IMG/VR virus record: IMGVR_UViG_3300010376_000001
Location: 1-64,000 of that record
Length of the DNA stretch: 64,000 nt
Origin: a virus
Direction: 5' to 3' (one strand)
Shown here: positions 5,656-59,464 of the stretch, one piece after another
How positions within the stretch are numbered: the stretch's first letter is position 1
Layout: every line of letters starts with the position of its first letter
Notes under the pieces: generated by a model
Databases searched by the model: none
What the model was told of the DNA's origin: nothing
The model's input: only the letters and a program-made list of their open reading frames with translations
Made by a program: the position numbers and the translations under genes

Positions 5656-5690
5656 GTGAGCCTAATCTTTCAAAAAATGGTAAAAATTTT
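5648..5690. repeat. 43-bp direct repeat, copy B, in the convergent junction of the two arms
   Basis: aaagttaggtgagcctaatctttcaaaaaatggtaaaaatttt. It overlaps the TAG of 4525..5655 and abuts the stop of the giant ORF. Read on the minus strand, the TTAGG/CCTAA stem is followed by a CTTTTCTGCTTCTTTTTC tract. Confidence 0.8.
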
Positions 5691-21106: not shown

Positions 21107-21393
21107 TTGGTCCGAGTACCGCTATCCCAGTCCTTCTGGCAAGCAGCGCGTGCCTCCTCTATGCTGTGTACATTTTCCGCAACGACATTGTTAAGGGTAC
21201 CCCTCCCTCGTTTTTCCAGGACAATTGCCAGGAACGTACCATTCTCATGATCATGAATTCGATACGTAGTTCCCGGGCTGGGTGCGCCAACCAGGGTGGC
21301 TGAAGTGGCTTCGTCTGCTACGGCTACCTGCTGGCCTGGTTCAACTCTTTCGGGGCCAGTCAGTGAACCTTCTTTCCAGTTTATTGTACTCAT
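21103..21393 (-). CDS. hypothetical protein
   Basis: 96-aa ORF filling the gap in the co-directional operon. The ATG follows the upstream TAG by 6 nt. Confidence 0.5.
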   Translation of the reverse strand: MSTINWKEGSLTGPERVEPGQQVAVADEATSATLVGAPSPGTTYRIHDHENGTFLAIVLEKRGRGTLNNVVAENVHSIEEARAACQKDWDSGTRTK

Positions 21394-21399: not shown

Positions 21400-23478
21400 C
21401 TACCATCCGGTATCTGCCACGAATTGAAAACGGTAAGATTGAGATGCTATGCTACTGGTCATCACGATATAGTCCAGAGACTTGGAGGTAACCTCAGTAC
21501 TGGTAACGGCATAGGAAACACCACCTGGAAAAGAGGTAGCCTGGTTCACCGTACCGTTATTGTTGTAGATGGTTACCGCTGGTACCTTGGCCATTTGTAC
21601 GGGGAAGGGAATTGATCCAAACCCATATCCAGCGGCAAAGGAGTGCATCCATTTTTCACCGGCAGTGGTATTGGTGGCTACCGCTGTAGCATCCTCGTAG
21701 CTCTTGTAGTAATAGCGGAAGCAGTCATTCCGGTTTTCAATCCAGGCTTTATCAATGATACTGCCGGCAGTATTGCCCGGTTCATGCTGGATAAAGGCAA
21801 TATCTATGGTTGAGCCAGCCGGTGAGGCAGCGAAATTACTCTGACCAGCAGCCCCTTTAAAGTTGCCGGGTGCCCACACATTATTGGCAGCTGCCATGAA
21901 GGTAGGCCCAGAGAACAGGCAAAGGCCAAGTACGTACCCCACTGTACCGGGGAGCAATGACCAGGTGGCACTAGGGTTCCACGGTGCGATATTGGATAAG
22001 GGAACAACTGTCCAGGTATTGGCAGTAGTCAGGGCAACTGGCAGCGTCAGACTATTTGTCCCAGCCGCATCCTGCAGGTGTAACCCAAGAGTTATGTTGG
22101 GTACACTGGAGCGTAACACAACCGTGATTGCAGTGTTTCCGGCAATCAGCTCGCGTAAGGCAATACCTTCAACACTCTGTTGCAGGTACGCTCGGTCAGT
22201 TGCGCCAAGTGTAACCTGCTGGGTAGTAAGCGTGATCCGGTAAAACTTGGATGAAAGACTAAAGGCAGCTCCAGGCAAGACTATACCGCTGGGTGCGGCA
22301 GTTTGCTTACCAGTAAAGACTGCGCCACCAGAGCCGGTACTAATAAACCATTGCCAACGGTCCAGGCCCCAGGTGCCATTTCCAGCCTGGCCGGCACCAG
22401 CGGTGCGTGAATCAACCTCGAAGTTCGGGTTGTGCAAGCTGTTAAAACTACGGACAAAAGGCGCTACCAGCTTAATCTGGCCAACCAGGTCATGACAGGC
22501 ATTATCGCCACCGATGTAATCAGTGGTTAGTCCACTGACCTTATTGAGTAGTCCCGCTTGAGTAGTGTCAGCCAGTGGTACAGTAGGTCCAACCGGTACC
22601 GGATTAGAGGCTTTAATGCAGTAGGTCAGGACCAGGAACGGGCTCATGTTATTGTGCCCAGCACCGGATCCAACACTGGTTGCGCTTGCCGTAATCCCGG
22701 TAGCAACTGAGTTGACATTAATCGCCGCTGCATTTGCTACCGTACACCCTGTACCAGCTGCTTGGATCCCAGTACCCGAGGCACTATTGTAGCAGCCCGT
22801 ACCTGAATTCTGGATTAGACCACCAGCCCCAGCAGCACCTGATTGAACACGACCCAGATTGCTTGTAGCCGTACAGTTCGTTGTCCAGCTTATCGTGTGC
22901 GAATGCTGTGGATCATTCAGCCCATGATTGTGTCCTGGGTCACCGTGATTATGCCCTGGATCACTGAAGGTGTGGCCGTGAGCCGGCAGGGTATGCAGGT
23001 GCTTGGGATCATTGATACTGATCGAATGAGTGTGCGATGCTGACTCGGCCAGAGTTAGGATGTGATTCTCTTCACCACCAGTATCGCCCAGGTTACGCAA
23101 GCTTAACCCGCTACCTTGCCCAGAACCCAGGATCATGCGGCCCAGCAGGTTTGGCGTATTGAACGTGGTTGAACCATCACCCTGGCCAAAGGGCGAACTG
23201 GCACCACCCAGAATAGCGTAGAGCGCAGCGTAGGTATTCCGGTTCTGTTGTGCTCCATCACAAAGTAAGCTACCCGCTGGTGGAGTTAAGGAGGGCCAGG
23301 CAAATATAGTCCCAATCATCATCCCCTCTGGCCCGGTTGGTCCTGGCGGCCCTTGTGGTCCCACACCATACGGCCCTTGAATACCTTGTGGCCCTTGCGC
23401 ACCACCAGGGCTGACTAGCGCACCGGTTGGTACCGCAGTACCGGGGACCGCATCCTGCTGAATTGGGGTTCCGTTCAT
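21400..23478 (-). CDS. tail fibre: short collagen-like tract, phage tail-collar domain, HxH repeat shaft and C-terminal receptor-binding-type domain
   Basis: [27 protein letters not shown], then the collar motif ..LLCDGAQQNRNTYAALYAILG..TFNTPNLLGRM..GGEENHILTLAE... HxH run HTHSISINDPKHLHTLPAHGHTFSDPGHNHGDPGHNHGLNDPQHSHT. The C-terminus is paralogous to that of 43586..46330 ([42 protein letters not shown]). Confidence 0.8.
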   Translation of the reverse strand: MNGTPIQQDAVPGTAVPTGALVSPGGAQGPQGIQGPYGVGPQGPPGPTGPEGMMIGTIFAWPSLTPPAGSLLCDGAQQNRNTYAALYAILGGASSPFGQGDGSTTFNTPNLLGRMILGSGQGSGLSLRNLGDTGGEENHILTLAESASHTHSISINDPKHLHTLPAHGHTFSDPGHNHGDPGHNHGLNDPQHSHTISWTTNCTATSNLGRVQSGAAGAGGLIQNSGTGCYNSASGTGIQAAGTGCTVANAAAINVNSVATGITASATSVGSGAGHNNMSPFLVLTYCIKASNPVPVGPTVPLADTTQAGLLNKVSGLTTDYIGGDNACHDLVGQIKLVAPFVRSFNSLHNPNFEVDSRTAGAGQAGNGTWGLDRWQWFISTGSGGAVFTGKQTAAPSGIVLPGAAFSLSSKFYRITLTTQQVTLGATDRAYLQQSVEGIALRELIAGNTAITVVLRSSVPNITLGLHLQDAAGTNSLTLPVALTTANTWTVVPLSNIAPWNPSATWSLLPGTVGYVLGLCLFSGPTFMAAANNVWAPGNFKGAAGQSNFAASPAGSTIDIAFIQHEPGNTAGSIIDKAWIENRNDCFRYYYKSYEDATAVATNTTAGEKWMHSFAAGYGFGSIPFPVQMAKVPAVTIYNNNGTVNQATSFPGGVSYAVTSTEVTSKSLDYIVMTSSIASQSYRFQFVADTGW

Positions 23479-26156
23479 TTCAGATAAAGACTGCCATTTA
23501 TCACGGTCCCATTGGCCATGAAGTTATTGCCGTTGGTAAGACTCTGTGCGGCGCTACTCAGCTGGGTAGCAACTGATCCAGCTACGGTATTGGCCAGGAT
23601 CCACCAGACCGCTCCTCCAGCGCACTGTAACAGATAGGTTAACGCCGCTGAGTAAAGGTTTACGAGATCGATTGAAACCGGGGTGCCTTCAGCTAGGTGA
23701 GCAAAGGTGACATTGATGCTCTGGCCCGAGGCATTCATCTGTATCCAAACGCTGACTGCATCGTAGCCAGCACACTCGATTGTCACTGTACCTGGGTTAG
23801 TGCCGCGATAAATTCGGGTAATCGGTGTAACAAGACGCCAGGAAGTACCGTCATAGACTACCCCAAACATCTTGCCAGCGGCCAGCTCGCTAGCACTGAG
23901 CGCGATGTTGGAACGGTTGACGATTGCCTTAACTCCAGTCCCATTGACGTTCAGGGTTGGGCTGGCCGCACTATTGGCATTGGTTGGCAGTACCCAGACA
24001 ACTACACCTGGAGTTAAAAGAAAATCACTGGCTACACTGACTATGTAAGCTCCGCTATTGGCTGTGTCTGTACCGTAGTACCGTCCTAAAGTTAAAGCCG
24101 ATACCGCACCGGCCAGGTTCTGGGCTGTATCAGTTCCATCAATAAAGTCAGTAGTACGACCGCTTAAGGGCGCCATTAAACCAGGCGCAGTCGTAGTGGC
24201 TAACGGTATAGCAGGAGCTTGTGGTGGCGTTAAAAGGGTAAGCTGGTTCCCGGCCTTAGATACAACCTGTAATGAACCGGAGTGACCAACCCCACCACCA
24301 GCCTGATCAATCCAGACCATTTGCCCGGGCACAACCCAGCTGGCATCTGATACGGTAACAACTACTGTGCTACCAACAGGTGGGACAGTGAATCCAGCAC
24401 TAGTCAGAGTAACCGCATTGGTTCCAGCTGGCCCAGTGGGGCCAACCGACCCAGCTGGACCTGCTACACCAGTGGGTCCTATCGGGCCGGAGGCGCCAAC
24501 ATTCGCCCCGGAATTGACAACTGTTCCAGGTGCGACATTGATCGGGTAGCCCAGGTTCTGGCAGGTAGCGACACTGCCAGCTACCGAGACAACGGTGTAA
24601 TAACCGCCGCCGTTAATGTAAAGAACTAGCCCAGGTGAAACACCACCTACTCCAGCGAGGGTAATCCCAACTGTAGAATTGACCGCTGGCTGGGTATAAT
24701 TAGCTGCGGTAGTGGTAGCGACAGTCGTACCAGCCGGTCCCGGCGGTCCCATCGCGCCATTGGTACCCGGTGTGCCAGCCGGTCCTTGTACACCAGTAGG
24801 ACCTTGCGCACCAGTAGCAGATACGAGACTCCCCTGAGCAACATTGGTACCCGCCGGGACTACCGGCGAGATACAAGTCAGGATCACCTGGTTTCCGGTC
24901 TGGATAGCCTGGACCTGGTACGAACCAGATCCCGCAATAAAGACATTGCAGTAGGGTACCAACCATCCTGTGTTATCAAAGGGAACAGTAATGGTTTGGC
25001 CAGCTGAAGGCGAACTAAAGGGCGCAGTCGTCTTACTCAGTGCGCTGATCCCGGTCGGTCCCTGTGCTCCGGTAATACCAGCTGCGCCTGAAGAAGTAAC
25101 CAGCCCCCCGGCCGACAGGATTGTACCAGCTGCGTGATTCTCCGGCACACCCGTATTGAGTATCGTCAGGGTATTGGCATCATTAACCTGCTGGACCAGG
25201 TAATAACCCAATCCATTCAAAAATACATATTGCCCAGCCTGAACCCAGTTTGTGGCAACTACTTTAAGAGTGCCATTCACATTAACTGGTGGCGCTACAA
25301 ACTGCGCAGTCGTGGTAGTGAAACAGCCTTGCCCAATCGGACCAACTGGACCAGCAGCCCCGACCGGACCTGCTACTCCGGTTGGTCCTTGTGGACCAGA
25401 GCCAATTACTGAAGTCGTAATTGGTACAGTCGTACCCGCAATCGGGTTTCCTGGTGTGCCACTATCAGTGATCGTGACATGAGTACCATCAGGTACAGCG
25501 GTCACTACATAGTAGCCAATCCAGCTCAAAGTATTGAAATAAAGGACCGTACCTGGGATCAGACCCGCGCTGGAATTAACCGAGATCGTTACAGTAGCTG
25601 GAGATTTGCCAGGGGTTACCGCAGCTGCTGTAGTAACACTGGAATAGGCTACTCCCGGTGGCCCAATTGGGCCTGGTATTCCTTGTGGCCCGGAGGCGCC
25701 AATCACTCCCTGCGGTCCCTGTGGACCAGTTGGCCCGATTGACCCGGAGATCGATACCTGGTTACCGACCGGCACGGTTGTACCGGATAGCGCGTTACCC
25801 TGCGCCCCGGTATTGAGCAGTGATACCGTGCCGGAGGTGAGCGCACTCACTGTAAAGTAACCGGCCCCCTGTACATAAACTTCCATACCGACCTGAAGCC
25901 AGTAGGTAGGCGTCATATTAACTACGACCTGGGTAATACCGTCTACAGGCGGTACCTCAAATGGAAGTGTAGTGATGCTGACTACACCCTGCCCGGCATC
26001 GCCCGTCGGGCCAGAAGGTCCCGGAGGACCAGTTAATCCCGGTGGTCCAGCCGGTCCTTGTGGACCTTCCGGCCCGGTAAAATCGATTTCGGTTTCAATC
26101 GGTCCAGCTGTCTGGATATCGACATTGATCGCACCGGTATAATCTAGTGCTGGCAT
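23475..26156 (-). CDS. beads-on-a-string fibre: six ~70-90-aa beta modules separated by collagen-like G-X-Y tracts
   Basis: Module consensus F-x-V-P-x-V-G..V.V....W...GQ.V.....G.Y.V......V.L.N recurs six times with G-X-Y spacers. The C-terminal ~200 aa are paralogous to the C-terminus of 42413..43582 (..NPTLNVNGTG.K..VN.., ..YDGTSWR.., ..IECAG..). Confidence 0.8.
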   Translation of the reverse strand: MPALDYTGAINVDIQTAGPIETEIDFTGPEGPQGPAGPPGLTGPPGPSGPTGDAGQGVVSITTLPFEVPPVDGITQVVVNMTPTYWLQVGMEVYVQGAGYFTVSALTSGTVSLLNTGAQGNALSGTTVPVGNQVSISGSIGPTGPQGPQGVIGASGPQGIPGPIGPPGVAYSSVTTAAAVTPGKSPATVTISVNSSAGLIPGTVLYFNTLSWIGYYVVTAVPDGTHVTITDSGTPGNPIAGTTVPITTSVIGSGPQGPTGVAGPVGAAGPVGPIGQGCFTTTTAQFVAPPVNVNGTLKVVATNWVQAGQYVFLNGLGYYLVQQVNDANTLTILNTGVPENHAAGTILSAGGLVTSSGAAGITGAQGPTGISALSKTTAPFSSPSAGQTITVPFDNTGWLVPYCNVFIAGSGSYQVQAIQTGNQVILTCISPVVPAGTNVAQGSLVSATGAQGPTGVQGPAGTPGTNGAMGPPGPAGTTVATTTAANYTQPAVNSTVGITLAGVGGVSPGLVLYINGGGYYTVVSVAGSVATCQNLGYPINVAPGTVVNSGANVGASGPIGPTGVAGPAGSVGPTGPAGTNAVTLTSAGFTVPPVGSTVVVTVSDASWVVPGQMVWIDQAGGGVGHSGSLQVVSKAGNQLTLLTPPQAPAIPLATTTAPGLMAPLSGRTTDFIDGTDTAQNLAGAVSALTLGRYYGTDTANSGAYIVSVASDFLLTPGVVVWVLPTNANSAASPTLNVNGTGVKAIVNRSNIALSASELAAGKMFGVVYDGTSWRLVTPITRIYRGTNPGTVTIECAGYDAVSVWIQMNASGQSINVTFAHLAEGTPVSIDLVNLYSAALTYLLQCAGGAVWWILANTVAGSVATQLSSAAQSLTNGNNFMANGTVINGSLYLK

Positions 26157-26160
26157 AGTG

Positions 26161-27351
26161 TTAGCGATTGGTACAGGTGTAGTACAAAGTCAGGTAACCA
26201 TAATCGAAAGTATCATTTGCCGATTGTGCCCGAATAGTAATGTTAACGGCATCAACTGAAATTGCGTAAGATCCAGGCTGCCCTGAAACAGGTACTGGTA
26301 TCCAGCTGGGGTTAGTTGAATCATGAAACCAAGAATCGTGACGAATGATATTGGCTAAGAAGGTGATATTATGCGCAACAGTACTTGAATTATTACCACC
26401 TGGTAACGTGCCTAAATTGATTGTCTTCTGGTAAACCTTCTTCCCATCAATCCAGAGCCGGCCAGTCCACTGCTCGTTAGTAGAATAATTGATTACACCT
26501 TGTGGCGGCAGGGCAATCCAGTCACCGGATTGTCGTCCATAAAACCGACCATCAGTAGGCGCCTCTCCCGGAATACCAATCCAGGTTTCACTTTGCCGGC
26601 CATAAACGTTGGTATCAATCGGTGCTTCTAAGACCACATCCGGTAGCTGTGCCATTGGCACCTGACCATCCAAGTCCAACCCGGCATAACCAAATGGAGT
26701 GCCCTTGTTTACCTGGACCTCAACTACGCCAGCCGTTCCGCCTACCCCGGACCAAGGCACACTCTCAGCCTGATCTACTACCCCGTTAGCATTCTGGTCA
26801 TAAACACTCAGACGCATCTCACCACCAGCATCAGCATACTGGGCATGATCAACTAGGTTTGGATTGTACTGACTCGCTCCTAAACAGTAATCGCTCTTGA
26901 GCATTACCTGGCCAACCGCACCACCACCACCACCACCTCCACCCCCACCTCCGCCACTAGGCGGTGTACTGCCATTAGTCATTACCCCCGGCACAGCGGT
27001 AATCGGCCAGGTGCCAGCCATGATGGTTGTAACTGTTCCCATCAAGTCAGCCATATCTAGATTGAAGTAATACGCCCCTGGCTCAAGTGTAGCCGTCAGG
27101 CTGCTCGGTACCGAAAAAGTAGTTTGTCCATCTGGAGATAAATCAGCCTCAACCCAGTTGATTCGAACTGGTGGTTGTAACTGGCCAGTCAAATCCTTAC
27201 TGGCGATAAAGGAAAAAGAGTACCCAGTGATATCAATCGGTGAGCCGTTCTGGTTAACGGTTACATTGAATGACATCGAGTTACCCTTAGGGCAAGCTGG
27301 CAAACCGACTGTGTTACCCATAGTTTTAAAGTGGTTGATTGCGCAGCACAC
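26161..27351 (-). CDS. fibre or baseplate-type structural protein (start uncertain)
   Basis: Ig-like N-terminal region, a G12 tract (nt 26920-26955), ..VYDQNANGVVDQAE.. and two EAPxDG..YGRQ..W motifs shared with other fibre genes. Alternative starts at 27321 (MGNTV) or 27276 (MSFNV, AAGGG upstream) would avoid the 26-nt overlap. Confidence 0.6.
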   Translation of the reverse strand: MCCAINHFKTMGNTVGLPACPKGNSMSFNVTVNQNGSPIDITGYSFSFIASKDLTGQLQPPVRINWVEADLSPDGQTTFSVPSSLTATLEPGAYYFNLDMADLMGTVTTIMAGTWPITAVPGVMTNGSTPPSGGGGGGGGGGGGAVGQVMLKSDYCLGASQYNPNLVDHAQYADAGGEMRLSVYDQNANGVVDQAESVPWSGVGGTAGVVEVQVNKGTPFGYAGLDLDGQVPMAQLPDVVLEAPIDTNVYGRQSETWIGIPGEAPTDGRFYGRQSGDWIALPPQGVINYSTNEQWTGRLWIDGKKVYQKTINLGTLPGGNNSSTVAHNITFLANIIRHDSWFHDSTNPSWIPVPVSGQPGSYAISVDAVNITIRAQSANDTFDYGYLTLYYTCTNR

Positions 27352-29254: not shown

Positions 29255-29452
29255 TTAGCGTATTGATCCAACATTCAGTAAGGGCAAGAGCAGGTATATC
29301 AGAATGAGCACGAAAATTATTACTATGATAAACCGTGCTATCTGAGCAAAAGGAGCTGGCAATGGCAGAAAGGACAAAGCCCACCAGACCAGCCAGCAGA
29401 TCAATCCCATTACCAGGATTACGATCAGTATATGGATGAGTGCAGCGATCAT
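29255..29452 (-). CDS. 65-aa two-helix membrane protein
   Basis: Almost entirely hydrophobic (IHILIVILVMGLICWLVWWAL .. FIIVIIFVLILIYLLLPLL). ATGA overlap upstream and TAA-ATG junction downstream. Confidence 0.6.
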   Translation of the reverse strand: MIAALIHILIVILVMGLICWLVWWALSFLPLPAPFAQIARFIIVIIFVLILIYLLLPLLNVGSIR

Positions 29453-30153
29453 GTTGTGTACCCCACGAATTGTGCAAACCCTAAAGCAATGTAAGGCGGG
29501 ATCAGGCTAATAGGAGCCTGTGCGCCAGTACCAGATAGCGGATAAGTCCAGACAGCATCATGCTGATCACCGTACCCGGTTACACCGGTCATATTTCCAC
29601 CTTGAAATCCATCCCTAGTATTTAACGTAATAGTCATAGAAGGCAGATTTGTTAACTGGATTTGAAAAGTAGCTCGCCCACCAGTATAAGCATCATATCC
29701 GTCTACATTAGTTACCCACAAATACCAGCCATCGCATCGGTATCCAGGGACGATAAATTTATTAGTCAGATTGATTGTGCCGTTGTTGCCATTAGCAATA
29801 GCCCAACCATCCCAGGGCAGCGTAGCATAGCCCAGCCCACTACCATCGAAATAGGTAGCCCAGTCTCCGGCATACATGGTGATCTGAGCTGGATTACCGG
29901 TCGCTACCTGGCGCCACCGCCCATTATACATGACAAATAGCCCAAGAGGCCGACCAACTGAGTCAGTCTTTAACCAGATCTTATTCTGATCTTGTGCCTG
30001 GGGCGTATTCGGCCCTTTAACCAGGAGTACATAATCCGGATCAAACTGGTAAAGCGTGTACTGCGCTACTGTCTGCAGTAAGGATTGAAAAGTCGAAGGC
30101 GCACTTAAACTCTTGGGAAACTGTAATGGCTGCGCTCTGATTGGAATCGACAT
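29449..30153 (-). CDS. tail-collar-type small fibre protein (paralogue of 30154..31092)
   Basis: ..WDGWAIANGNNGTINLTNKFIVPGY.. and C-terminal ..PPYIALGFAQFVGY.. match tail-collar (MdpB-like) hallmarks. The N-terminus is alignable with its neighbour. Confidence 0.65.
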   Translation of the reverse strand: MSIPIRAQPLQFPKSLSAPSTFQSLLQTVAQYTLYQFDPDYVLLVKGPNTPQAQDQNKIWLKTDSVGRPLGLFVMYNGRWRQVATGNPAQITMYAGDWATYFDGSGLGYATLPWDGWAIANGNNGTINLTNKFIVPGYRCDGWYLWVTNVDGYDAYTGGRATFQIQLTNLPSMTITLNTRDGFQGGNMTGVTGYGDQHDAVWTYPLSGTGAQAPISLIPPYIALGFAQFVGYTT

Positions 30154-31092
30154 TTATTTGTAACCCATAAATTGTACGTACCCTAAAGCGATATAAGGCG
30201 GTAATCGACTGACTGGGGTATCTTTCATGTATGGTGCTTGATCAATCGGATACTGCCAAAGACCAGCGAAACTCTGCTGAGCAGAGGGTGCTCCAGGTGG
30301 TGAAACTGATCGCATGCCGCCACTTGCCGTGTCGCCAGCGTCATGCCCGACAAAGATAAGCTCGTAATTGTTGTTCGAGCCACCCTGCATATTCAGTTCT
30401 ACATTTACCCCGATAAAAGGCATTGCCCCTGAGCCATTACCTAAGTTAAAAGGAGCAATCTGGAAAAAGTGCCAGCCGCCTGTAACGGCATCTACTGGAG
30501 CTGTCTGGGCAGCTTGTACATTTGGGCCAGTAAAGCTAATGCCCAAATCGGTATTGTAAGCAACTTCACCCTGAATCCTACCAGGGCCATGACCACCACC
30601 GCCAGGTCCCTCACCACCTGGTTGATCCAGGGCACTTCCAACATTGGTAATCCAGCCTTGGCCGCTGGCATATCGGTAACCAGGCACAACAAATTTATGC
30701 CCCAGATTAACTGTGCCATTGTTCCCATTACATATGGCCCAACCTTCCCAGCCAGTGGCCTCAATTCCATAGCCACTGGAATCAAAGTATGGCCCGGGTG
30801 GCCCACAAAAAGTACGAATTTCGCCAAACTTGCCAGTATAGACCTGCCACCAATTGTTACGATAGCCGGTCATTGCTCGAGGTGCTAAGAAACGACCTTG
30901 CAACATCCAGATCCAGAGTGAATCCAAGCTTGCCCCAGAGCCATCTGCGTTAGCCATGACTGGCGGCCCACTAACCTGTGCTTCGTAATCAGTATACTGG
31001 GCAATCGCCTCCAGCACTCCCTGCATCTCATTTGGTACCGTGTAATTAGACGGCACATTTTTAGGAGTAGCTGTAACTGGGATCGGAATCAT
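30154..31092 (-). CDS. tail-collar-type small fibre protein (paralogue of 29449..30153)
   Basis: ..WEGWAICNGNNGTVNLGHKFVVPGY.. and ..PPYIALGYVQFMGY.. It carries an extra Gly-rich insertion relative to the paralogue. Confidence 0.65.
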   Translation of the reverse strand: MIPIPVTATPKNVPSNYTVPNEMQGVLEAIAQYTDYEAQVSGPPVMANADGSGASLDSLWIWMLQGRFLAPRAMTGYRNNWWQVYTGKFGEIRTFCGPPGPYFDSSGYGIEATGWEGWAICNGNNGTVNLGHKFVVPGYRYASGQGWITNVGSALDQPGGEGPGGGGHGPGRIQGEVAYNTDLGISFTGPNVQAAQTAPVDAVTGGWHFFQIAPFNLGNGSGAMPFIGVNVELNMQGGSNNNYELIFVGHDAGDTASGGMRSVSPPGAPSAQQSFAGLWQYPIDQAPYMKDTPVSRLPPYIALGYVQFMGYK

Positions 31093-35299: not shown

Positions 35300-37003
35300 T
35301 TACGTACTCTGGATAACGTGATCTATGCCACCGCCTCCCATGTAATGAAGCTTGTTGTCCCCTGGGCTGAGATATAAAAAACAAGCATTCTGCCCTGGGT
35401 TGTAAAAGCCTATACCGGCGCGACCTGCTGCAGTTGCTGCCTGGATCAGTATAGCTGCCTGTGAATAGCTAGGTGGCCCTAAACCAACATCTTTTGTGCA
35501 AACAATTTGGCCGCTATTATAGGAAAAAATGGCATTATTTACTGTATCTCCATTTTTATTAACTGGTGGGTAATTTAAACCATAGGCATATGGGCTATTA
35601 CCCTGAGTACAAGGAGGAGAAGCCAAGCCGTAAGCATACGGACTATTACCATTGTCACAAAGAACTCGAACTCTTCCACCGGAGTCAACAGTGCGCATGC
35701 TAAAATCGTTTTCCAGATAAAGCGACAACGCACCAACCGGTATATTCCAAAAGGCAATCTGTGCTCTGGCTCCAGAAGTAGAAGCCTGTACTCGAATTGG
35801 CGCTACCGACCAGGAGGCTGAACCTAAACCAGCCTCTTTTTGCCAGGCGAATATACCGGTATTTGTCATCTGGTCCCCATTCCAGTTAACTGGGCGGAAA
35901 CCTAGATTAGCCTGAGCCACGCCAGCAGCTAAAGCAGAAGCCATAATTGACTTGGCCGCCAATTGACTACCTGGAATCGAAGAAATTGAAGAGAGCAAAT
36001 AAGCTGCTGTGCCATCTGCATACTGCAAATTCAAATCTGAATGACCACTATTGTACCAGATCGCGACTGAACCACCACCGGGCGCCAGACGAGCTAAACC
36101 AATTGTCGGATATCCAGTACCAGTGGGAGTCACCTCAGCAAATAGGTGCGCATTCTGGTACATATTGGCATTGACGTTTGGTCCACTCATCAACACCGCC
36201 AGCTGGCCACTCATCACGTCCCCAGTCTTATTGACCGGTTCGAAACCCAGATTTGTGGCAGCTGCACCCAAGGCCAGTTTATCTGCAGTAACTGCTCCTG
36301 GCTGAATTGCGGCATTGTTTACGCCATTGGGCTGGACTGCTTCAGCTTTGTCTACAATCCCGTTAAAATTACGGTCATAGACCGCCATGGTCATATCACC
36401 CGCACCGACACTGGCCGGGTACCAGCCCAATACTCCATCTGGGTCCGTCCCGTAACGCATATCCGGGCCGGGATCGGCTTGATCACCAATCAAGGAGATT
36501 GTCAGGTCACCTGATAATGGCCCTCCGCCTTCAATCGAAAACGAGGTATTGACCATCCTCGTATTGGGCACCTTGGTTCCCAGATCAGTAGTCAGATTTA
36601 TAACATCTGACTCATGAATGGGTAGCGTTGGTGGAAAGGTCAGTGGTACACCGGTAATTCCACCCCAGGGTACATGCGCAGCCTGACTGACTATTCCAGT
36701 TGCACTGGGGTCATAGGTGCTCTGGAGCATGACCCCAGGAGTATTGCCAGCCAGGACCGATGAAGTAATAACTAGCGCGTTACCATCCGGCGCTTTAGTA
36801 ATTGTTACTCCAGTGCCGGGCTGTAATCGATAAAATGCCAGCTCAGAGTTGGTATCTGTACCCTGTAAAACAGGTTGTCCATCACTGGATGTACCCAAGT
36901 TATAACCGTCCAGGATCGCACCAGCAGTGGGTGCAAGCGTACCCTGTACCTCGCGGCCAAGATCGACCTTTTTGCCAAGTGGAGTCCAGCCGTTATTGCT
37001 CAT
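35300..37003 (-). CDS. fibre-like structural protein
   Basis: ..AVYDRNFNGIVDKAEAV.. motif shared with 26161..27351. Repeated ..NSPYAYGL.. segments. Ala/Gly/Thr/Ser-rich beta-type composition. Confidence 0.55.
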   Translation of the reverse strand: MSNNGWTPLGKKVDLGREVQGTLAPTAGAILDGYNLGTSSDGQPVLQGTDTNSELAFYRLQPGTGVTITKAPDGNALVITSSVLAGNTPGVMLQSTYDPSATGIVSQAAHVPWGGITGVPLTFPPTLPIHESDVINLTTDLGTKVPNTRMVNTSFSIEGGGPLSGDLTISLIGDQADPGPDMRYGTDPDGVLGWYPASVGAGDMTMAVYDRNFNGIVDKAEAVQPNGVNNAAIQPGAVTADKLALGAAATNLGFEPVNKTGDVMSGQLAVLMSGPNVNANMYQNAHLFAEVTPTGTGYPTIGLARLAPGGGSVAIWYNSGHSDLNLQYADGTAAYLLSSISSIPGSQLAAKSIMASALAAGVAQANLGFRPVNWNGDQMTNTGIFAWQKEAGLGSASWSVAPIRVQASTSGARAQIAFWNIPVGALSLYLENDFSMRTVDSGGRVRVLCDNGNSPYAYGLASPPCTQGNSPYAYGLNYPPVNKNGDTVNNAIFSYNSGQIVCTKDVGLGPPSYSQAAILIQAATAAGRAGIGFYNPGQNACFLYLSPGDNKLHYMGGGGIDHVIQST

Positions 37004-38070
37004 AGGACAAAGAAGCTGAGGCCGTTGGAGTAAATAAAAACGTGCCCATAGGGGATATCGATTACGTAAGTAGATTGTCCCTGAATCAGGCTGCCATCAC
37101 TGGTAGTAATTGTAATCGGGTATTGATCAGCTGTGCCTGTTTCATCCTTGATTGCCAGGAGCCGGGTCATCCAATTTGTAATCGGCGCCAGCACCACATT
37201 CATTGGCGTAGGGATAGTAGGAAGTGAAATGCCAATGAGAGTTTCCACTCCGGTTAAAAGAATTGGGCTGGCTGAATAATTATGTCGTGAGAAGCTTAGC
37301 CCTATTGGTGCTTGCCAGCTTACTCCCGGATCCGCTGTTGAATCCATGGTCAGTACCAAGCCGTTCATATTGACGGCTGGCACCCTGACATTGGCTTCTC
37401 CGTTAAAAGCAATCAAATCTCCTTTAACCCGGGTAGGCGCGATCTCATCAAAGGAAACCTGCAGCTCGCTCTGAGGCGCCCAGCGCAAGCCTGTTGGAGT
37501 GCTGTTGTCGGTGATAAGAACTTCACCATTATTGTCTGAAACAACGGCAATATTGTGCGCAGCATCATGCCCAATAATCTGACCAGGTCCAGTTAGTGGC
37601 GAAAGATTGTCAAAAGCGCCAAGTGAGGTAGCCGATCCAGTCCCGCCTAAATTGATCCCAAGCGGAGAAGTTAAAACCCAGGGTGGTCCTTGTGGCCCTT
37701 GTAAACCGGAGGGAGCTACTTGAATACCTGTACCTACCTGACTGTCCGGTGGTAAATTTCCTGGATATCCCAGGTTGGTCAGCACCATGACCGAGAGCGT
37801 ACTGACAAAGGCTACCTGGTAGTAGCCGACTCCCATCAGGTAAACTACCTGGTTAGGAGTAGCCCATTCAGCTGGATCAACTGCAACATTAACATTAGAC
37901 CCAACTGCTGGGACAATAAAGGGCGCTGTAGAAATACCAAAAGCGTTCTGGCCATCAATCCCTTGAGGGCCAGTATCTCCTTTAGGACCAGTTGGTCCCG
38001 GCGGACCCGGCGTTCCACTGATCGGAGGACAATCGGGTTCGCATTGGCAACCTAAAGCTATGAGTGACAT
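37000..38070 (-). CDS. collagen-like fibre protein carrying one copy of the shared beta module
   Basis: [23 protein letters not shown], then ..APFIVPAVGSNVNVAVDPAEWATPNQVVYLMGVGYYQV..LTNLGYPGN.., then GLQGPQGPP. Confidence 0.7.
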   Translation of the reverse strand: MSLIALGCQCEPDCPPISGTPGPPGPTGPKGDTGPQGIDGQNAFGISTAPFIVPAVGSNVNVAVDPAEWATPNQVVYLMGVGYYQVAFVSTLSVMVLTNLGYPGNLPPDSQVGTGIQVAPSGLQGPQGPPWVLTSPLGINLGGTGSATSLGAFDNLSPLTGPGQIIGHDAAHNIAVVSDNNGEVLITDNSTPTGLRWAPQSELQVSFDEIAPTRVKGDLIAFNGEANVRVPAVNMNGLVLTMDSTADPGVSWQAPIGLSFSRHNYSASPILLTGVETLIGISLPTIPTPMNVVLAPITNWMTRLLAIKDETGTADQYPITITTSDGSLIQGQSTYVIDIPYGHVFIYSNGLSFFVL

Positions 38071-41531: not shown

Positions 41532-42416
41532 TCAAGTCTTTATGATCTGGTTGTAAACAATAAATGGCATCATGGTATTATGCGCTACCCCAGAACCATT
41601 ATTGCCGCTGCTGGCGGTAATACCTGTCCCTGCTCCAGCGGTATTAGCCGTGCTTGCACCATCAGAGGTGTTCGTACTAGGTCCACCGGTATTTACCCAG
41701 CCAGAATTAGTCTGACTAGCGTATACTGTACTCCCAGCCGGGAGCGAAGCAGCTGCTACCGTATCGCCCGTGGCGCGAGCATCAGTTGAGTAACCGTAGG
41801 CTGTTCCACCAAGAGAATTTACGCCACTTCCACCAGCGGCGTTTAAAGCATATCCCATCGCATGAGCATGCGTCGCGGCATTTAAACCGTGAGAGTGAGA
41901 AAAACCGGCGCCAATATTGTGGTAGTGATCCATCCCATGCACATGATTTCCCAGTGTATGGGTATGAGCGTGCCCATGAACATGGGTACCTGGATCACTG
42001 ATACTGATCGTATGATTATGGGCAGCTAGTTCAGCTGTAATCAGCGCGTGTTTTTCTTCTCCGCCGATATCGCCCACCGATCTGGCCGTTAATCCCGTTC
42101 CTTGCCCAGCACCAACCTTGGCTCTACCTCGACCATCCGGAACATTAAATGTGCCGCCACTGCCGCCAAACGTATAACCAATCACGGCAAACAGATTGGC
42201 CATGGCGCCAGTCGTGGAATAACTGGAGCCATCCACCATTACATACCCAGGCGGTGCTGTACTTCCGGCATAATCGAAAATACACCCAGTTGGAACACCA
42301 CCTATAGCCGCACCACCCGGACCTTGAATCCCTTGCGGCCCTTGCGCACCGGCTGGAGTAACCAGTGACGCATTAGGTACACTGGTACCGGGGATAGCCT
42401 GGCCGGTCGCGCTCAT
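41532..42416 (-). CDS. tail-collar / HxH fibre protein
   Basis: [13 protein letters not shown], the collar motif ..PPGYVMVDGSSYSTTGAMANLFAVIG..TFNVPDGRGR..GGEEKHALITAEL.. and the HxH run HNHTISISDPGTHVHGHAHTHTLGNHVHGMDHYHN..HSHG..HAHA. The N-terminus and nt 42318-42350 are near-identical to 23371-23403. Confidence 0.8.
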   Translation of the reverse strand: MSATGQAIPGTSVPNASLVTPAGAQGPQGIQGPGGAAIGGVPTGCIFDYAGSTAPPGYVMVDGSSYSTTGAMANLFAVIGYTFGGSGGTFNVPDGRGRAKVGAGQGTGLTARSVGDIGGEEKHALITAELAAHNHTISISDPGTHVHGHAHTHTLGNHVHGMDHYHNIGAGFSHSHGLNAATHAHAMGYALNAAGGSGVNSLGGTAYGYSTDARATGDTVAAASLPAGSTVYASQTNSGWVNTGGPSTNTSDGASTANTAGAGTGITASSGNNGSGVAHNTMMPFIVYNQIIKT

Positions 42417-43582
42417 AGGAATAGCAGGTAACCCTGGCCATCACCACCTCCAACCAGAAGCACTTGCACACCAGCCGAAATACTTGTTGCCGCTGCATCA
42501 AGCTGTGTTGCTCCAGCTCCAGCAAGAGTATTAGCCCAGATCCACCAGCAATTTATTGCATTCCCAGCTACATCAGTTGCCTTGATCTGGTAGGTGCTCG
42601 CGGCACTAGCATAAGCATTCAATATTCGAACCATGAAATGCGAACCGTAAGCAACATGCTGAAAGGTCACCACCAATGACCCAGCGGCACCGCTGGTGCC
42701 GACACTGGCAAAGTAGCAAACACTGGTAAACCCGGCGCACTCGATTGAGTGTGTTCCAGGATTAACCAAAGTGACTCTGCGGAAAAGTGGACTTAAAACT
42801 CTCCAAGAGGTGCCGTCATAAACGGCCAAGTGAGTTCCGACGGGCAGTTCTAGGGCGGTTGTTAAAGCTACATTTGCCTTGTTAACAACCGGTTTTGCTC
42901 CAGTGCCATTGACGTTTAAGGTCGGGTTCGCAGCATTATTTCCTATGGAAATAGTGAAAGAAACGACCACCCCTGCTACCAAGGTAAAATCGCTCGCCAC
43001 AGTTATGGCATAAGCTAACGTGTTAGTGGTATCAGCTCCGTAGTAACGACCTACAGCTGGAGCAAAAAGATGTGAATCACTGCCCAGCTTAACAATGTTC
43101 CCGGCATCAGTACTAATGAGAGGATGACTGGCATTGTCTCCACCGATATAATCAGTGGCATTACCACTGATCGTATTCATCAGCCCAGGACCAGAAGTTG
43201 ATGCTAAATCCTCCGGTACATAAACTAGGTTATCTGAACCAAGCTCAGCCAAATTACCGGCATCGGTACTGACTAATTCTTCTGGCCCGGCAAAAACATT
43301 GAGCAAGGTCACCTGGTTTGTACTGATGGCCTGTACCTGAAAGCAGCCAGCCTGACCACTACCGCCAGCGCCTTCAACATAAACCATCTGACCAACAGTT
43401 AACCAGCTGGGATCGGCTACTGTAACAACTACAGTCCAACCGTAATTAGGTACGGTAAAAGCGCCTACCGTTTCAGTTGTGCCACCAAAACCACCGGTAC
43501 CCTGCTGACCGCCGGGGCTAACTTGAGTGCCGCTTGGTACTATAGTCCCGGGTGGTGCTTGACGTATTTCGACTTCCGGCAT
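42413..43582 (-). CDS. fibre protein with the shared beta module and a C-terminal domain paralogous to 23475..26156
   Basis: ..FTVPNYGWTVVVTVADPSWLTVGQMVYVEGAG..; C-terminal ..NPTLNVNGTGAKPVVNK..YDGTSWRV..IECAGF.. Confidence 0.75.
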   Translation of the reverse strand: MPEVEIRQAPPGTIVPSGTQVSPGGQQGTGGFGGTTETVGAFTVPNYGWTVVVTVADPSWLTVGQMVYVEGAGGSGQAGCFQVQAISTNQVTLLNVFAGPEELVSTDAGNLAELGSDNLVYVPEDLASTSGPGLMNTISGNATDYIGGDNASHPLISTDAGNIVKLGSDSHLFAPAVGRYYGADTTNTLAYAITVASDFTLVAGVVVSFTISIGNNAANPTLNVNGTGAKPVVNKANVALTTALELPVGTHLAVYDGTSWRVLSPLFRRVTLVNPGTHSIECAGFTSVCYFASVGTSGAAGSLVVTFQHVAYGSHFMVRILNAYASAASTYQIKATDVAGNAINCWWIWANTLAGAGATQLDAAATSISAGVQVLLVGGGDGQGYLLFL

Positions 43583-43585: not shown

Positions 43586-46330
43586 TCACCAAGTGGTATC
43601 CACCGAATAATGATAAATAGCCACTGCTGAGCTAGCTGGTGGCGCTCCAGGCAAATATCCACCACCTTTTTCATTTACCAAGGAGGCGGTCACTGCCACA
43701 TCTCCACCTACGGCACCGGCTGTAGTTCTAGAACTGATCGAACCTACTGTACCGTTATCATAAGAAAAAAGAGTTACAGTTGGTGTTCTAGCAAGCGGCT
43801 TAGATAATACTGGAAATCCCCAAGCTCCTGCATTGCCTGCTCCCCAAACGGAATTGACAAAACCAGCTGCTGTTTTGGCTCCGGCTGCTGTAGGTGCAGT
43901 AGCATAAGCCAATGATTTTTGATAAAAACGTAAGCAACGGTCATAATTAGTCTGCCAATCAACATCAATCAGCGGTGAACAGTCGCTACCAACCTCGTGT
44001 TGAACAAAAAATAACGTGATCCCATTATTGACCGTTGCCAGAACGTTGTCCTGTCCTTGCGCTCCATAAAAATTACCGCTATTCCATGTTCCATTAGACG
44101 GTGCTGTATATGTCGTTCCAGCAGCTAGACAAATTCCAAGCTGATAACCAACTGTCCCAGGTGTTCCAACATTTGCTAGACTCGTTGGAAATGGAGCCAA
44201 GTTTGGAATCTGGATTGTCTGTGCTGTGTTAGAATACGGCAGTAATGTCAACAAATAAGTCAGAGTTGTAGCTCTACCAGAATCAGCTATACTCAATCCT
44301 AACTTGAAAGTTCCGGCAGCATTATTGCAAGCCACTATCGTAAAAGAATGGCTTCCGCTAAATATCTCTCTAAACTGCGAACCTTCTACTATCTGCTGAA
44401 GCATTACATAATCAGTAGCAGCAAGTGAAGCTTTAGCTGTGCCGACAGCTATCTTGATTCCATTTATAAAGCTAGGAAAATAGCTACCTGAAATAGCAGC
44501 CCGACTAGTATTAACATTTGGTGCTAATGGTCCAAAAATAATCCAGCGGTCACAAATTCGAGTATTATTAGCTGGAGCGTTCTTGGTTGGCGTGGCGGTC
44601 TGGTCAATCTCGAAATTGGCGTTCTGAATTGCATTAAAACTATTGGAACGAACTGCCCAGATAACTGGTTTAGCCACCGTTGTAAGGTTGGTCCAACCTT
44701 GGCTCTGACGCACATAAGACTGAAAATCATTTGGCGCATCGGCCTGGATCGGATCTGGTGTCCAGACTGAATTCTGGCGCACATAAATCTTGCCATCCGT
44801 AGATGCTTCCAGTACCGGAACAGGAGTCCAGGTCTTATTCTCCCGGGCATAAAGTCCTCCGTCATTAGGTGCCTCACCTACTTCTGGCTCAGCCTTTTGG
44901 TTGTACAGAGTAACAGTGTTTCCGGTCTTTGCCGTACAGACCAAGGTGGCCGCATTGCCAGGACTACCCATATTACCAACCCAGACAGTCTGCCCGACTA
45001 CAATCCAGCTGGCATCAGCTAGTGTCACCGTGGTAGAAGCACCCACTGCCGGAACAGTAAAATTGGCTAAGGTAGTCGTAGAAGCCGTTCCCGGCGGACC
45101 GGGTACAGTCGAATCCGCTCCTGATGGACCAGCTGGTCCTTGTGCGCCTGTAGAACCAGTTGCACCGGGATTTCCCTGCGGTCCTTGTGGCCCGGTTAAG
45201 CCAGGATCTCCCGTTGCACCAGTTGGACCCATCGGGCCAGCTGGACCCATTGGTCCTGGAACAACTGAATCTGCTCCAGCTGGTCCCTGTGGTCCGGTTG
45301 GGCCAGCTGGTCCGGTCGCACCGGTATTTCCAGTCGGGCCTTGCGGCCCAGCTGGACCTTGAATTGGACCAATATCAATCCAGCTTGTGCCTTGCCATAC
45401 CCAACCATGACCAGTATCCAGGGCGGTATAGCAATCATTTGGCTGATTCCCGGTTGTTGGCAGACTGGCAGCAGTAGGCACTGTGCCTTTCATATTTAAG
45501 CCAACACCGGCTGGACCTTCCGGTCCGATTGGTCCTGGTGGACCAGCTACTCCGGTTGCACCCTGCGGCCCAGTTGCACCAACATCACCTTGCAGACCTT
45601 GCGGCCCGGTTGCGCCCGTATTACCAGTTGGTCCCGACGGTCCAGTTGAACCTTGCGGCCCGGTCGCACCGGTTGTGCCCTGAATTCCTTGCGGCCCCTG
45701 CGGTCCGGGGACAGTTGAATCTGCTCCCGCTGGTCCTTGAGGACCAGTTGCACCGATATTACCCTGCGGTCCTTGTGGGCCAGTTAACCCTGTCGCCCCG
45801 GTTGCACCGGTATTTCCTTGCGGCCCGGGCACTCCTTGCGGCCCAGTATCGCCTTTTGGTCCTTGTGGACCAACATCGCCTGTTTCACCCTGCGGACCTT
45901 GAACTCCCGGTGGTCCTTGTGGCCCAACCGGCCCTCCTGGTGTTCCCGGCGGTCCTTGTGGTCCAGTTGGACCAGCTGGCCCCGGTTCACCGGGTGGAAT
46001 TACTTCCCAAGCTTCGTTCTGGCGTCCGTAAAGTTCACCATCAGTGGGCGCCTCGGGAATGCCACCGCCCCCGCCCCCGCTACCGCCTTTAATTACTTGC
46101 GCCGCAGTGAGTAACGCAGCTGCCTCGAAATCTATGTTCCTCTCGCCATAGGCATAGTACTCTCCGAAAATCTTGAGTATTTCCGGGTCGATTTTGCCAC
46201 CGTCTTTATTGACCTGGGCGAGCGCAAGAGTCGCTGCCGTTTCCGGATTCCAGTTACCCTGTCCTTGGGCCAGGTAATCCTTAAAAAGCTTGAGCGTTGC
46301 TGGATCAATGTCTGGATAGGTTTGCGGCAT
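43586..46330 (-). CDS. long collagen-like fibre protein (914 aa)
   Basis: More than 250 residues of G-X-Y with GADS(T/V)VPGP interruptions. Four EAPxDG..Y.R.N..W motifs, one shared beta module, and an AT-richer C-terminal domain paralogous to that of 21400..23478. Confidence 0.8.
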
Positions 46331-59081: not shown

Positions 59082-59464
59082 CTGGAAACCGTAGTCACCG
59101 GGGAACTAATCCGCCGGCTAATCTTCCACCAGAATATCCCACTCCCATGAACGCACTGGATCGCTTAAGAGCCCAATCAATGTCGCTTACCGGCGGCAGA
59201 TCGCCCGATGCGCTTCCCTCTGGAGGTCCCGGTTTACAAGGCCGGTGTGATGATTTCCCGCGTGAGGCTTATGTACGTGGCAAAACCAACCTGAAACGAC
59301 CTGAGGCAATCGTGCCGGTCAGAACCGGCGCGCGCGATGCGGCCGGGCCACCGCTTAACGTAAATCTGACCCAGCTGACCAGTGACGCTTCAGGCAAGTG
59401 TAACACCAGCGAGTGGATGCATGGTTGGTGGGGCCATTCCTGCGGTTGTGGCGAAGAAACATGA
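59078..59464 (+). CDS. hypothetical protein
   Basis: ATGA overlap with the polymerase stop. 128 aa, ending ..[16 protein letters not shown]. Confidence 0.45.

Follow-up and report, generated by a model that had tools for sequence, protein, structure and literature searches.

The fibre-type genes of an uncultured soil phage raise the question of whether they are built from a common set of protein modules or merely resemble each other through collagen-like repeats and, if modules are shared, whether these were exchanged inside this genome or between genomes. We addressed this in the window, i.e. the whole 64,000-nt stretch analysed here, which is part of a genome of about 78.6 kb. The initial annotation had counted at least eleven fibre-type genes in it and had described them as chimeras of a small set of shuffled modules forming an internally recombining repertoire.

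Fibre genes and their modules

Fibre genes are found at three loci, namely A (41532-46330), B (21400-27351) and C (59461-60789, plus strand), and every fibre gene of loci A and B is on the minus strand. Seven of the eleven proposed genes have clear fibre hallmarks (those starting at 21400, 23475, 37000, 41532, 42413, 43586 and 59461). Those at 26161 and 35300 contain only short fibre-associated motifs, and the fibre nature of those at 29449 and 30154 was not confirmed, as they are paralogues of each other that nothing ties to fibres. This pair had no Pfam, PHROG or NCBIfam match, and a collar-like assignment based on their common PPY..L.. C-terminus was rejected, since hhalign found no similarity to the collar profile. 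The features are as follows:

21400..23478, minus strand: 692-aa fibre; ANCH1 peptide and short collagen run (23317-23478), Collar+HxH (22603-23316), LINK joint (22480-22578) and head A (21403-22455), delimited by blastp, Pfam and module HMMs
23475..26156, minus strand: 893-aa fibre; ANCH3 N-terminus (26076-26156), six collagen plus beta-module units (24207-26075), LINK (24108-24206) and head B (23478-24104)
26161..27351, minus strand: 396-aa tail protein; weak BppU_N-like N-terminus, 12-Gly tract, YD-type repeat (26725-26820) and two foldon-like hairpins (26503-26634)
29449..31092, minus strand: two paralogous genes encoding proteins of 234 and 312 aa, with 30% mutual identity (blastp E 4e-31)
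35300..37003, minus strand: 567-aa protein, kept in all relatives; two YD-type repeats (36629-36733 and 36293-36397), common to the 396-aa protein
37000..38070, minus strand: 356-aa protein, 55-86% conserved among relatives; short collagen run and one beta module (37696-38016)
41532..42416, minus strand: 294-aa fibre; ANCH1 peptide (42291-42416), then a terminal Collar+HxH (41535-42290)
42413..43582, minus strand: 389-aa fibre; ANCH1 (43475-43582), beta module (43253-43474), STDAGN-LINK-STDAGN joints (43055-43273) and head B (42416-43054)
43586..46330, minus strand, N-terminal part of the 914-aa fibre: lineage-specific ANCH2 domain (46067-46330), foldon (45992-46060) and collagen (45113-45991) with a CBM5/12-like insert (45359-45502)
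43586..46330, minus strand, distal part of the 914-aa fibre: beta module (44876-45100), three foldon-like hairpins (44684-44881) and head A (43589-44647)
59461..60789, plus strand: 442-aa collagen fibre of locus C, downstream of the DNA polymerase; contains STDAGN, and its C-terminal domain matches the tail-fibre family phrog_11393

The Collar+HxH module, in whose sequence the HxH repeats are visible, scored 57.6 bits in the 692-aa and 47.5 bits in the 294-aa protein with the Pfam Collar model (PF07484, cut-off 24 bits). In the PDB its profile recovered the long tail fibre gp34 of the Anabaena myophage A-1(L) (8KEC, residues 175-378, E 1e-26), whose arm binds host cells experimentally (PMC10966104), as well as T4 gp12 (1OCY and 1PDI, E 2e-5). 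The profile of head A had no sequence match in the PDB. Its AF2 monomer model (pLDDT 89, pTM 0.82) is a double beta-sandwich with a putatively CBM-like fold, for which Foldseek returned CBM61, CBM4, CBM11 and CBM16 (E 2e-6, probability 1.0) with a target TM of 0.67 but a query TM of only 0.28 and an identity of 9-14%. More than 345 homologues of head A were detected, in which its fusion partners are Collar, collagen or CBM_5_12. For head B the count is 27, with beta modules, Collar, collagen or a bare anchor as the partner, and its distal ~118 residues in the 893-aa protein (23478-23831) are variable. The AF2 model of the 389-aa protein is confident for its beta module and head B; by Foldseek it matched the Mu fibre (6o38_C), the tail fibre of Pa193 (9b45_2, 32% identity) and, in BFVD, viral tail fibres.

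The beta module occurs nine times, as had been proposed: six copies in the 893-aa protein and one each in the 356-, 389- and 914-aa proteins, alignable over ~75 residues at 17-48% pairwise identity. A profile built from the nine copies retrieved 2,710 cluster representatives among 1.84 billion proteins. The module has no Pfam, NCBIfam or PDB entry, the NCBIfam search giving collagen matches only, and the best hit among PDB sequences was a marginal match to a tail-tube insertion (E 0.49). The recurrence of the EAPxDG..Y.R....W motif likewise held, with four copies in the 914-aa and two in the 396-aa protein. The first of these (residues 88-110 of the 914-aa protein) reached 26.9 bits with the Pfam Fibritin_C model (PF07921, cut-off 21) at profile positions 67-89 of 93, and the remaining five were detected by an in-house HMM only; these motifs are T4-fibritin foldon-like. 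Two short conserved joints connect such modules, namely LINK, with the consensus PLAxTTxxGLxNxxSGxxTDYIGGDNxCHxL, and STDAGN. LINK stands ahead of all four shaft-following kinds of head. Neither the beta module nor LINK nor either of heads A and B belongs to a curated family.

Module sharing and its age

The 692-aa protein is a chimera, as first suggested: by blastp its residues 56-289 match residues 44-293 of the 294-aa protein (35% identity, E 2.5e-18), and its residues 343-692 match residues 563-914 of the 914-aa protein (32% identity, E 3.5e-35). The 893-aa and 389-aa proteins have a common C-terminal head (residues 661-876 versus 135-371, 45% identity, E 2.7e-47). The N-terminal peptides of the 692-, 294- and 389-aa proteins are similar, and 30 of 33 positions are identical between nucleotides 23371-23403 and 42318-42350. 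The GXY collagen runs of the 914-aa and 893-aa proteins score 98.2 and 59.5 bits, above the cut-off of 27.2 bits of Pfam PF01391. One could hence ask if the similarities are merely of the collagen low-complexity type, with no real modules in common, as might be suspected from the many weak DNA repeats, which are collagen-coding, and from NCBIfam matches that are limited to collagen. Yet with the GXY runs masked and the low-complexity filter on, 16 inter- or intra-gene matches survived at E<=1e-3 (best 1.7e-45, the shared modules ranging from E 1e-6 to 1e-45), while 20 shuffled controls yielded none; moreover, AF2 models predict the shared regions as confident globular folds. Collagen low complexity therefore does not account for the similarities; we consider the probability of that explanation negligible, and the shared globular modules are real. 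Taken together, blastp, the module HMM map and the masked comparison support the view that the fibre genes are chimeras from one small module set common to both clusters, 20 kb apart.

The impression that the heads are AT-richer than the collagen shafts was correct as far as composition goes, with GC values of 0.61-0.67 in the shafts versus 0.44-0.52 elsewhere. The excess sits in the first and second codon positions of the collagen (GC12 0.75-0.80), GC3 being 0.34-0.42 and not above that elsewhere. The AT-richness of the heads is an effect of amino acid composition, namely the Gly and Pro codons of collagen, and gives no sign of foreign origin. Within the 914-aa gene, GC3 is about 0.30-0.34 in the collagen and head A, 0.46 in the beta/foldon segment and 0.53 at the N-terminus. 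The low values past residue 113 were considered as a mark of foreign origin, but equally low windows occur in other genes and we regard this as suggestive only.

The notion of an internally recombining repertoire was not supported, the in-genome copies being old paralogues with 30-48% amino acid identity. In the large modules codon identity at identical residues is 0.34-0.40 and synonymous sites are saturated. Codon identity at the joints is weakly above this background, with 13 of 22 for ANCH1 (0.59) and 11 of 20 for LINK (0.55), and the longest DNA matches among in-genome copies span 43-87 nt at 72-86% identity. Gene conversion or ectopic exchange between the two clusters, ongoing inside this genome, might be read from this slight rise at ANCH1 and LINK, from the 43-nt stretch that is 86% identical between the N-termini of the 692- and 294-aa genes, and from stretches of 52-87 nt at 71-75% identity in homologous cores. 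Against it stand the divergence and synonymous saturation of the large modules and the lack of any inter-cluster DNA repeat longer than 87 nt or more than 87% identical. Furthermore, locus B is syntenic and 67-76% identical in a close relative, and its architecture therefore predates their split. We accordingly hold ongoing exchange within this genome to be improbable.

A programmed system, either a diversity-generating retroelement (DGR) or an invertible tail-fibre segment like Mu G or P1 C, is more improbable still. It would be in keeping with the distal tip of head B being the most divergent part in comparison with the close relative. However, a search for a template/variable repeat pair, or for near-identical inverted repeats on either side of a fibre segment, yielded nothing, and indeed no near-identical direct or inverted repeat pair of these kinds was found across 20000-47000. 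The fibre genes of loci A and B all lie on one strand, and no reverse transcriptase or invertase came up among the ORFs scanned, a set that includes some of the small ones.

Exchange between genomes

Comparison of related phages did reveal exchange of fibre cassettes. In relatives with 82-92% identical core proteins the N-terminal anchors are kept whereas the distal modules differ, and their fibre cassettes occupy three alternative loci. Contig ..765_000088, with core proteins 82-92% identical to those of the window, encodes at locus A fibres of 669, 514 and 409 aa whose modules follow other orders. Contig ..765_000163 lacks a locus A fibre and encodes at locus B a single 815-aa fibre, in which the N-terminus of the 893-aa protein is joined to a terminal Collar+HxH. 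In a 78,595-nt relative (L008) locus A is empty and locus C holds a cluster of five genes, three of which are module-bearing fibre genes. The borders of such replacements can be located within single proteins: in comparison with relatives L001 and L002 only residues 1-120 of the 914-aa protein are conserved (75-87% identical), the remainder being replaced, and in comparison with the close relative L006 the 893-aa protein is 80-90% identical up to residue ~720, dropping to 25-40% from ~780. The breakpoints between relatives coincide with module borders, and these positions point to recombination at the joints themselves.

Exchange also extends beyond the lineage, as the unrelated contigs L010 and L011 have only a three-gene fibre cassette in common with the window. 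A systematic survey of mosaic receptor-binding proteins (RBPs) by Smug et al. 2023 (PMC10684548) took 70% identity as the criterion for recent sharing; by this measure the in-genome sharing is old, whereas the ANCH2 domain, 75-82% identical among relatives whose distal parts differ, and the CBM-like insert, 84% identical between the window and L010, lie above the threshold. The exchange that can be demonstrated is clearly one between genomes, at conserved joints. Nor did the 692-aa protein acquire its combination of collar and head in this genome, as full-length homologues of the same architecture (P0029-P0041, 84-99% coverage) exist elsewhere. Among deposited phages none has a single region covering 80% of this protein, and its halves match different phages. 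The DNA of 21400-29254 had no match in 50,697 phage records, nor did tblastn with three core structural proteins find one among deposited phages, and the lineage has no deposited relative. When the conserved 388-aa protein was used to scan the genomes of bacteria and archaea, nothing was returned, which gives no pointer to the host, and no tRNA genes were found.

A fibre apparatus of swappable modules

These observations lead us to propose, with good confidence, an adsorption apparatus with at least seven trimeric fibres from three loci, each a linear chain of swappable modules that are re-paired by recombination. Each chain would start with an N-terminal attachment element, either ANCH2 or ANCH3, which would be lineage-specific and inherited with the core genome, or ANCH1, a short attachment peptide common to the secondary fibres. 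Next would come trimer-registering elements, i.e. foldon-like hairpins and collagen GXY runs, followed by spacer beta modules and the short joints LINK or STDAGN. The chain would end in a distal head, which in this phage comes in three kinds: Collar+HxH of the T4 gp12 or A-1(L) gp34-arm type, head A, a double beta-sandwich with a putative likeness to CBMs, and head B, similar to a Mu/Pa193 tail-fibre domain. Recombination at the conserved joints and collagen runs would create new fibres by re-pairing anchors, shafts and heads, and whole multi-gene cassettes would be moved between phages. From homology and monomer models we predict that the proteins are trimers and that the heads recognise distinct glycans or receptors on the host surface. 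Homology to solved tail fibres and to PHROG tail-fibre families suggests a virion-fibre, receptor-binding role, and the repertoire may serve to broaden or stage host recognition.

Locus A is flanked by a coiled-coil 437-aa gene on one side and by the most conserved structural gene (388 aa) on the other, a setting that is unusual for tail fibres, and some of its products could therefore be head or neck fibres. Searches of Pfam, PHROG and PDB sequences placed the core structural genes in no recognisable family. It is conceivable, though unlikely, that a part of the set, above all the 914-aa fibre and its neighbours, is fibritin- or whisker-like or decorates the capsid. This would suit the position of locus A away from tail-type genes and next to a putatively scaffold-like gene, the fibritin-type foldon of the 914-aa protein, and the dispensability of the locus, where one relative has an empty site and another carries small genes that are unrelated. 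On the other hand, heads A and B and Collar+HxH also occur in locus B amid tail-type genes (with a GTA_TIM domain, a BppU_N-like region and a minor-tail PHROG), the solved homologues of these heads are tail fibres, and the scaffold and capsid identities of the genes flanking locus A are putative.

Mosaic tail-fibre or receptor-binding proteins are exemplified by the fibres of P2, Mu, P1 and the T-even phages. The window is clearly a further example of this familiar tail-fibre mosaicism, the general principle of which is already well established. Like the RBPs of the above survey, its fibres combine conserved N-terminal anchors with swapped C-terminal heads and have homologous domains in otherwise unrelated proteins, with exchange across phage lineages; they differ in that several of their modules (the beta module, LINK and heads A and B) lack a curated family. 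The Collar+HxH module is homologous to that of A-1(L) gp34 (8KEC) and T4 gp12 (1OCY, 1PDI), and in the 294-aa protein it is C-terminal, as in gp34. In the 692-aa protein, by contrast, it is internal and followed by LINK and a second head, placing two head-type domains in tandem, and the phages are otherwise unrelated. The foldon-like motif is above the Pfam cut-off for the T4 fibritin foldon, and one copy in the 914-aa protein directly precedes the collagen run, as expected of an element predicted to nucleate trimers. In T4 fibritin the foldon is a single C-terminal cap, whereas here the copies are internal and in tandem (three in a row in the 914-aa and two in the 396-aa protein). Streptococcal phage fibres with collagen repeats have a comparable collagen arrangement. 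In the collagen-like tail-fibre proteins of E. coli O157:H7 prophages (PMC3368898), collagen likewise lies between globular fibre domains and is a candidate substrate for recombination. The flanking domains differ from those of the window, in which collagen alternates regularly with the ~75-aa beta module, up to six times.

Several receptor-binding proteins per virion or branched fibres are known from the CBA120 tailspikes, G7C, DT57C LtfA/LtfB (PMC4728585) and Klebsiella phiK64-1. The window resembles these in having many RBPs per virion, as judged from its genes, and short secondary genes behind a long primary gene. Among the matches obtained for the window fibres there was no docking domain of a known kind, and branching is a hypothesis here. 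On such a reading, which we put forward tentatively and think rather unlikely, the secondary 692-, 389- and 294-aa fibres would dock on the beta/collagen units of the primary 893- and 914-aa fibres or assemble together with them, and ANCH1 would be identical to the neck in which a beta module closes and the following collagen run opens. At seven loci ANCH1-bearing genes stand last in the fibre gene run, behind one or two longer fibre genes. In three proteins a collagen-free ANCH1 profile matched exactly at the end of a beta module and outscored all shuffled sequences, but it made no such match in the 893-aa protein itself. The first HMM signal for ANCH1 as a post-beta neck was partly due to the collagen part of the profile, and we keep it as a hypothesis only. 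If branching were true, one primary fibre could display several different heads, and the beta module would be a new and widespread scaffold and docking domain of phage fibres.

Returning to the linear chains of swappable modules, the window offers a clean natural example of the rebuilding of host recognition, in which close relatives keep their anchors while shafts and heads are swapped at short conserved joints, and three-gene cassettes are mobile between unrelated phages. The beta module, LINK and heads A and B are abundant environmental fibre modules outside the curated families, and the annotation of soil viromes is limited as a consequence. LINK and the collagen joints are natural splice points, which could guide the swapping of receptor-binding proteins in laboratory phage-host pairs.

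Shared modules of the fibre proteins

The fibre proteins were compared all-against-all by blastp with SEG filtering on, which recovered every shared module listed in the initial annotation, where the fibre genes had been described as chimeras:

692-aa and 294-aa proteins: residues 56-289 and 44-293, 35% identity, E 2.5e-18
692-aa and 914-aa proteins: residues 343-692 and 563-914, 32% identity, E 3.5e-35
893-aa and 389-aa proteins: residues 661-876 and 135-371, 45% identity, E 2.7e-47

Likewise recovered were nine copies of the beta module, a spacer unit alignable across about 75 residues, the EAPxDG..Y.R....W motifs common to the genes at 26161 and 43586, and the similarity of nucleotides 23371-23403 to 42318-42350 (30 of 33 positions identical). 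With every collagen (GXY) run masked, 16 matches were left, with E-values down to 1.7e-45, and none arose in residue-shuffled controls (n=20); hence the alternative that the similarity is of collagen type only fails, and the chimeric nature of the genes is supported. Of the eleven genes counted as fibre-type, those at 29449 and 30154 are paralogues of each other for which no tie to fibres was found. Collagen shafts and heads do differ in GC, as reported; the difference sits in codon positions 1 and 2 (collagen GC12 0.75-0.80, GC3 0.34-0.42) and is due to Gly and Pro codons in collagen.

In the module map, built with in-house HMMs seeded from window sequences, ANCH1 denotes a short N-terminal peptide of secondary fibres, ANCH2 and ANCH3 lineage-specific N-terminal elements, LINK and STDAGN conserved joints, and heads A, B and Collar+HxH distal domains.

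Module order in the fibre proteins of the window
43586 onward, 914 aa: ANCH2, foldon, collagen (with CBM5/12-like insert), beta, three foldons, head A
42413 onward, 389 aa: ANCH1, beta, STDAGN, LINK, STDAGN, head B
41532 onward, 294 aa: ANCH1, Collar+HxH
23475 onward, 893 aa: ANCH3, six (collagen, beta) units, LINK, head B
21400 onward, 692 aa: ANCH1, Collar+HxH, LINK, head A
37000 onward, 356 aa: collagen, beta, C-terminal part
59461 onward, plus strand, 442 aa: collagen, STDAGN, tail-fibre C-domain (phrog_11393)

LINK (PLAxTTxxGLxNxxSGxxTDYIGGDNxCHxL) precedes every shaft-borne head, including a fourth head type seen in one relative. Collar+HxH scores above the Pfam Collar cut-off, and its profile matches T4 gp12 and, at E 1e-26, gp34 (PDB 8KEC, residues 175-378), which is the long tail fibre of the Anabaena myophage A-1(L); the arm of gp34 has been seen experimentally to bind host cells (PMC10966104). 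It forms the protein end, ...IIK(T/Y), in six of seven proteins of the lineage; the 692-aa type alone has LINK and head A after it, and thus possesses two tandem head-type domains. This architecture is also present in full-length homologues elsewhere (P0029-P0041), so it did not originate in this genome. The model of head A is confident (pLDDT 89, pTM 0.82) and bears some resemblance, at the level of fold, to the carbohydrate-binding beta-sandwiches CBM61, 4, 11 and 16 (E 2e-6); head A may bind glycans. The model of the 389-aa protein, confident for the beta module and head B, aligns with the chaperone-bound Mu fibre (6o38_C), with the tail fibre of Pa193 (9b45_2; 32% identical across 106 columns) and with numerous tail fibres of viruses. 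The first EAPxDG motif scores above the Pfam Fibritin_C cut-off and lies directly ahead of the long collagen run, the position expected for a trimer-nucleating element. The beta module has no sequence match in Pfam, NCBIfam or PDB; its profile retrieves 2,710 cluster representatives, of which 961 reach E<=1e-10, and many of the representatives carry 4-10 copies in tandem. Since several abundant modules lack a curated family, the map has some annotation value.

The 396-aa protein contains 12 consecutive glycines, encoded by a GGT-rich trinucleotide tract at 26917-26956, possibly a slippage-prone linker. A 96-aa gene (21103-21393, minus strand) directly follows the last fibre gene and is conserved in that position in two relatives, at 64% and 38% identity; its product may be a fibre-associated factor, e.g. 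an assembly chaperone.

Age of the copies within the genome

The paralogous modules within the genome are 30-48% identical, and in the large modules codons agree at 34-40% of identical residues, indicating that synonymous sites are saturated. DNA matches between the clusters span just 43-87 nt at about 72-86% identity; codon identity is somewhat raised at the joints, albeit on small numbers (ANCH1 13/22, LINK 11/20). No template/variable repeat pairs, and no near-identical inverted repeats fit for a DGR or invertible segment, were found in 20000-47000. Given old copies and the absence of such programmed-variation repeats, ongoing recombination inside this genome, the "internally recombining" repertoire of the initial annotation, is unsupported.

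In the 914-aa gene GC3 beyond residue 113 (43589-45991, minus strand) is 0.30-0.34 in collagen and head A and 0.46 in the beta/foldon segment, against 0.53 in the conserved N-terminus; the low values would fit a junction with foreign DNA, but other genes have equally low windows.

The phage lineage and exchange among its relatives

The window belongs to a contig of 78,631 nt from a soil metagenome, and its content reads as a tailed-phage genome:

about 5690 to 53252, minus strand: long structural gene block
plus strand: replication block with an exonuclease-like gene, a family A DNA polymerase (57201-59081) and a helicase

Neither the DNA of 21400-29254 nor three core structural proteins matched any of 50,697 deposited phage records, and the identity of the polymerase to those known from phages is only about 26%; by these searches the lineage has no deposited or cultured relative. 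The core structural proteins at 40189-41355, 46489-47802 and 48095-50626 (minus strand) are 50-92% conserved in relatives and have no match in Pfam or PHROGs, nor, for the 388-aa and 843-aa proteins, in a PDB sequence search. The giant ORF 5690-16381 (minus strand, 3,563 aa) has no Pfam match, its sole match being a weak one of residues 3160-3363 to phrog_22602, 'virion structural protein'. A 46-nt direct repeat (4440-4485 and 5645-5690, 87% identical) brackets ORF 4525-5655 (plus strand, 376 aa); each copy comprises a small palindrome (TTAGGTnnnCCTAA) and then an A/T-rich run, and resembles a terminator or regulatory element present as a repeat.

IMG/VR holds four relatives, among which exchange is evident as other module sets at loci A (41532-46330), B (21400-27351) and C (59461-60789, plus strand). 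The core proteins of 3300043765_000088 are 82-92% identical to those of the window, whose 914/389/294-aa set at locus A is there replaced by another.

Locus A fibres of 3300043765_000088
669 aa: ANCH2, foldon, collagen, beta, collagen, beta, Collar+HxH
514 aa: ANCH1, beta, LINK, head A
409 aa: ANCH1, STDAGN, head A

Conservation of the 914-aa protein with this relative is limited to residues 1-120. Locus A holds unrelated small genes in 3300043765_000163 and is empty in a 78,595-nt relative; the slot looks like an insertion hotspot. In 3300043765_000163 (11487-12878) it encodes no fibres, and instead has a 191-aa ORF rich in proline and a protein of 251 aa that, as read by eye, resembles a signal peptide at its N-terminus and PEP-CTERM at its C-terminus. 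Locus B is syntenic in 3300043765_000088 at 67-76% identity, falling to 25-40% in the final ~118 residues of head B and 12-37% in the HxH segment within the 692-aa protein. In 3300043765_000163 it encodes a 272-aa ANCH1 fibre and one 815-aa fibre that joins the N-terminus of the 893-aa protein to a terminal Collar+HxH. The 78,595-nt relative has its fibres at locus C, after the DNA polymerase, in a five-gene cluster, three genes of which bear these modules.

Beyond the lineage, two unrelated phage contigs from ENA, L010 (74,463 nt; cassette at 5839-11242) and L011 (62,110 nt; 5750-11224), have in common with the window only a three-gene cassette: a Collar+HxH fibre, a long head A fibre and a short ANCH1 head A fibre. 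Homologues of head A number more than 345 and are joined to Collar, to collagen, or to CBM_5_12 together with collagen; those of head B number 27, with four kinds of N-terminal part. Searched against deposited phages, the 692-aa protein matches different phages with its two halves, never one region.

Mosaic organisation of the fibres

Smug et al. (PMC10684548), in their survey, count sharing under 70% identity as not recent, and the in-genome sharing of modules belongs to this class. By the same measure two cases here count as recent mosaicism: ANCH2, 75-82% identical in relatives with differing distal parts, and the CBM-like insert, 84% identical between the 914-aa protein and the unrelated contig L010.

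Locus A has an unusual place, adjoining a coiled-coil 437-aa gene on one side and the most conserved structural gene on the other, and part of what it encodes may be fibres of the neck or head. In seven loci ANCH1-bearing genes close the fibre gene run, behind one or two longer fibre genes, and ANCH1 resembles the neck ending a beta module; as just three matches support this once the collagen part of the profile is removed, a branched fibre apparatus might at most be hypothesized.

The fibres of the window display the mosaicism that is classical for phage receptor-binding proteins: anchors are inherited together with the core genome, whereas shafts and heads are swapped, probably at short conserved joints, and whole fibre cassettes pass from one lineage to another. 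Several trimeric fibres with different heads would bind different host surface structures.
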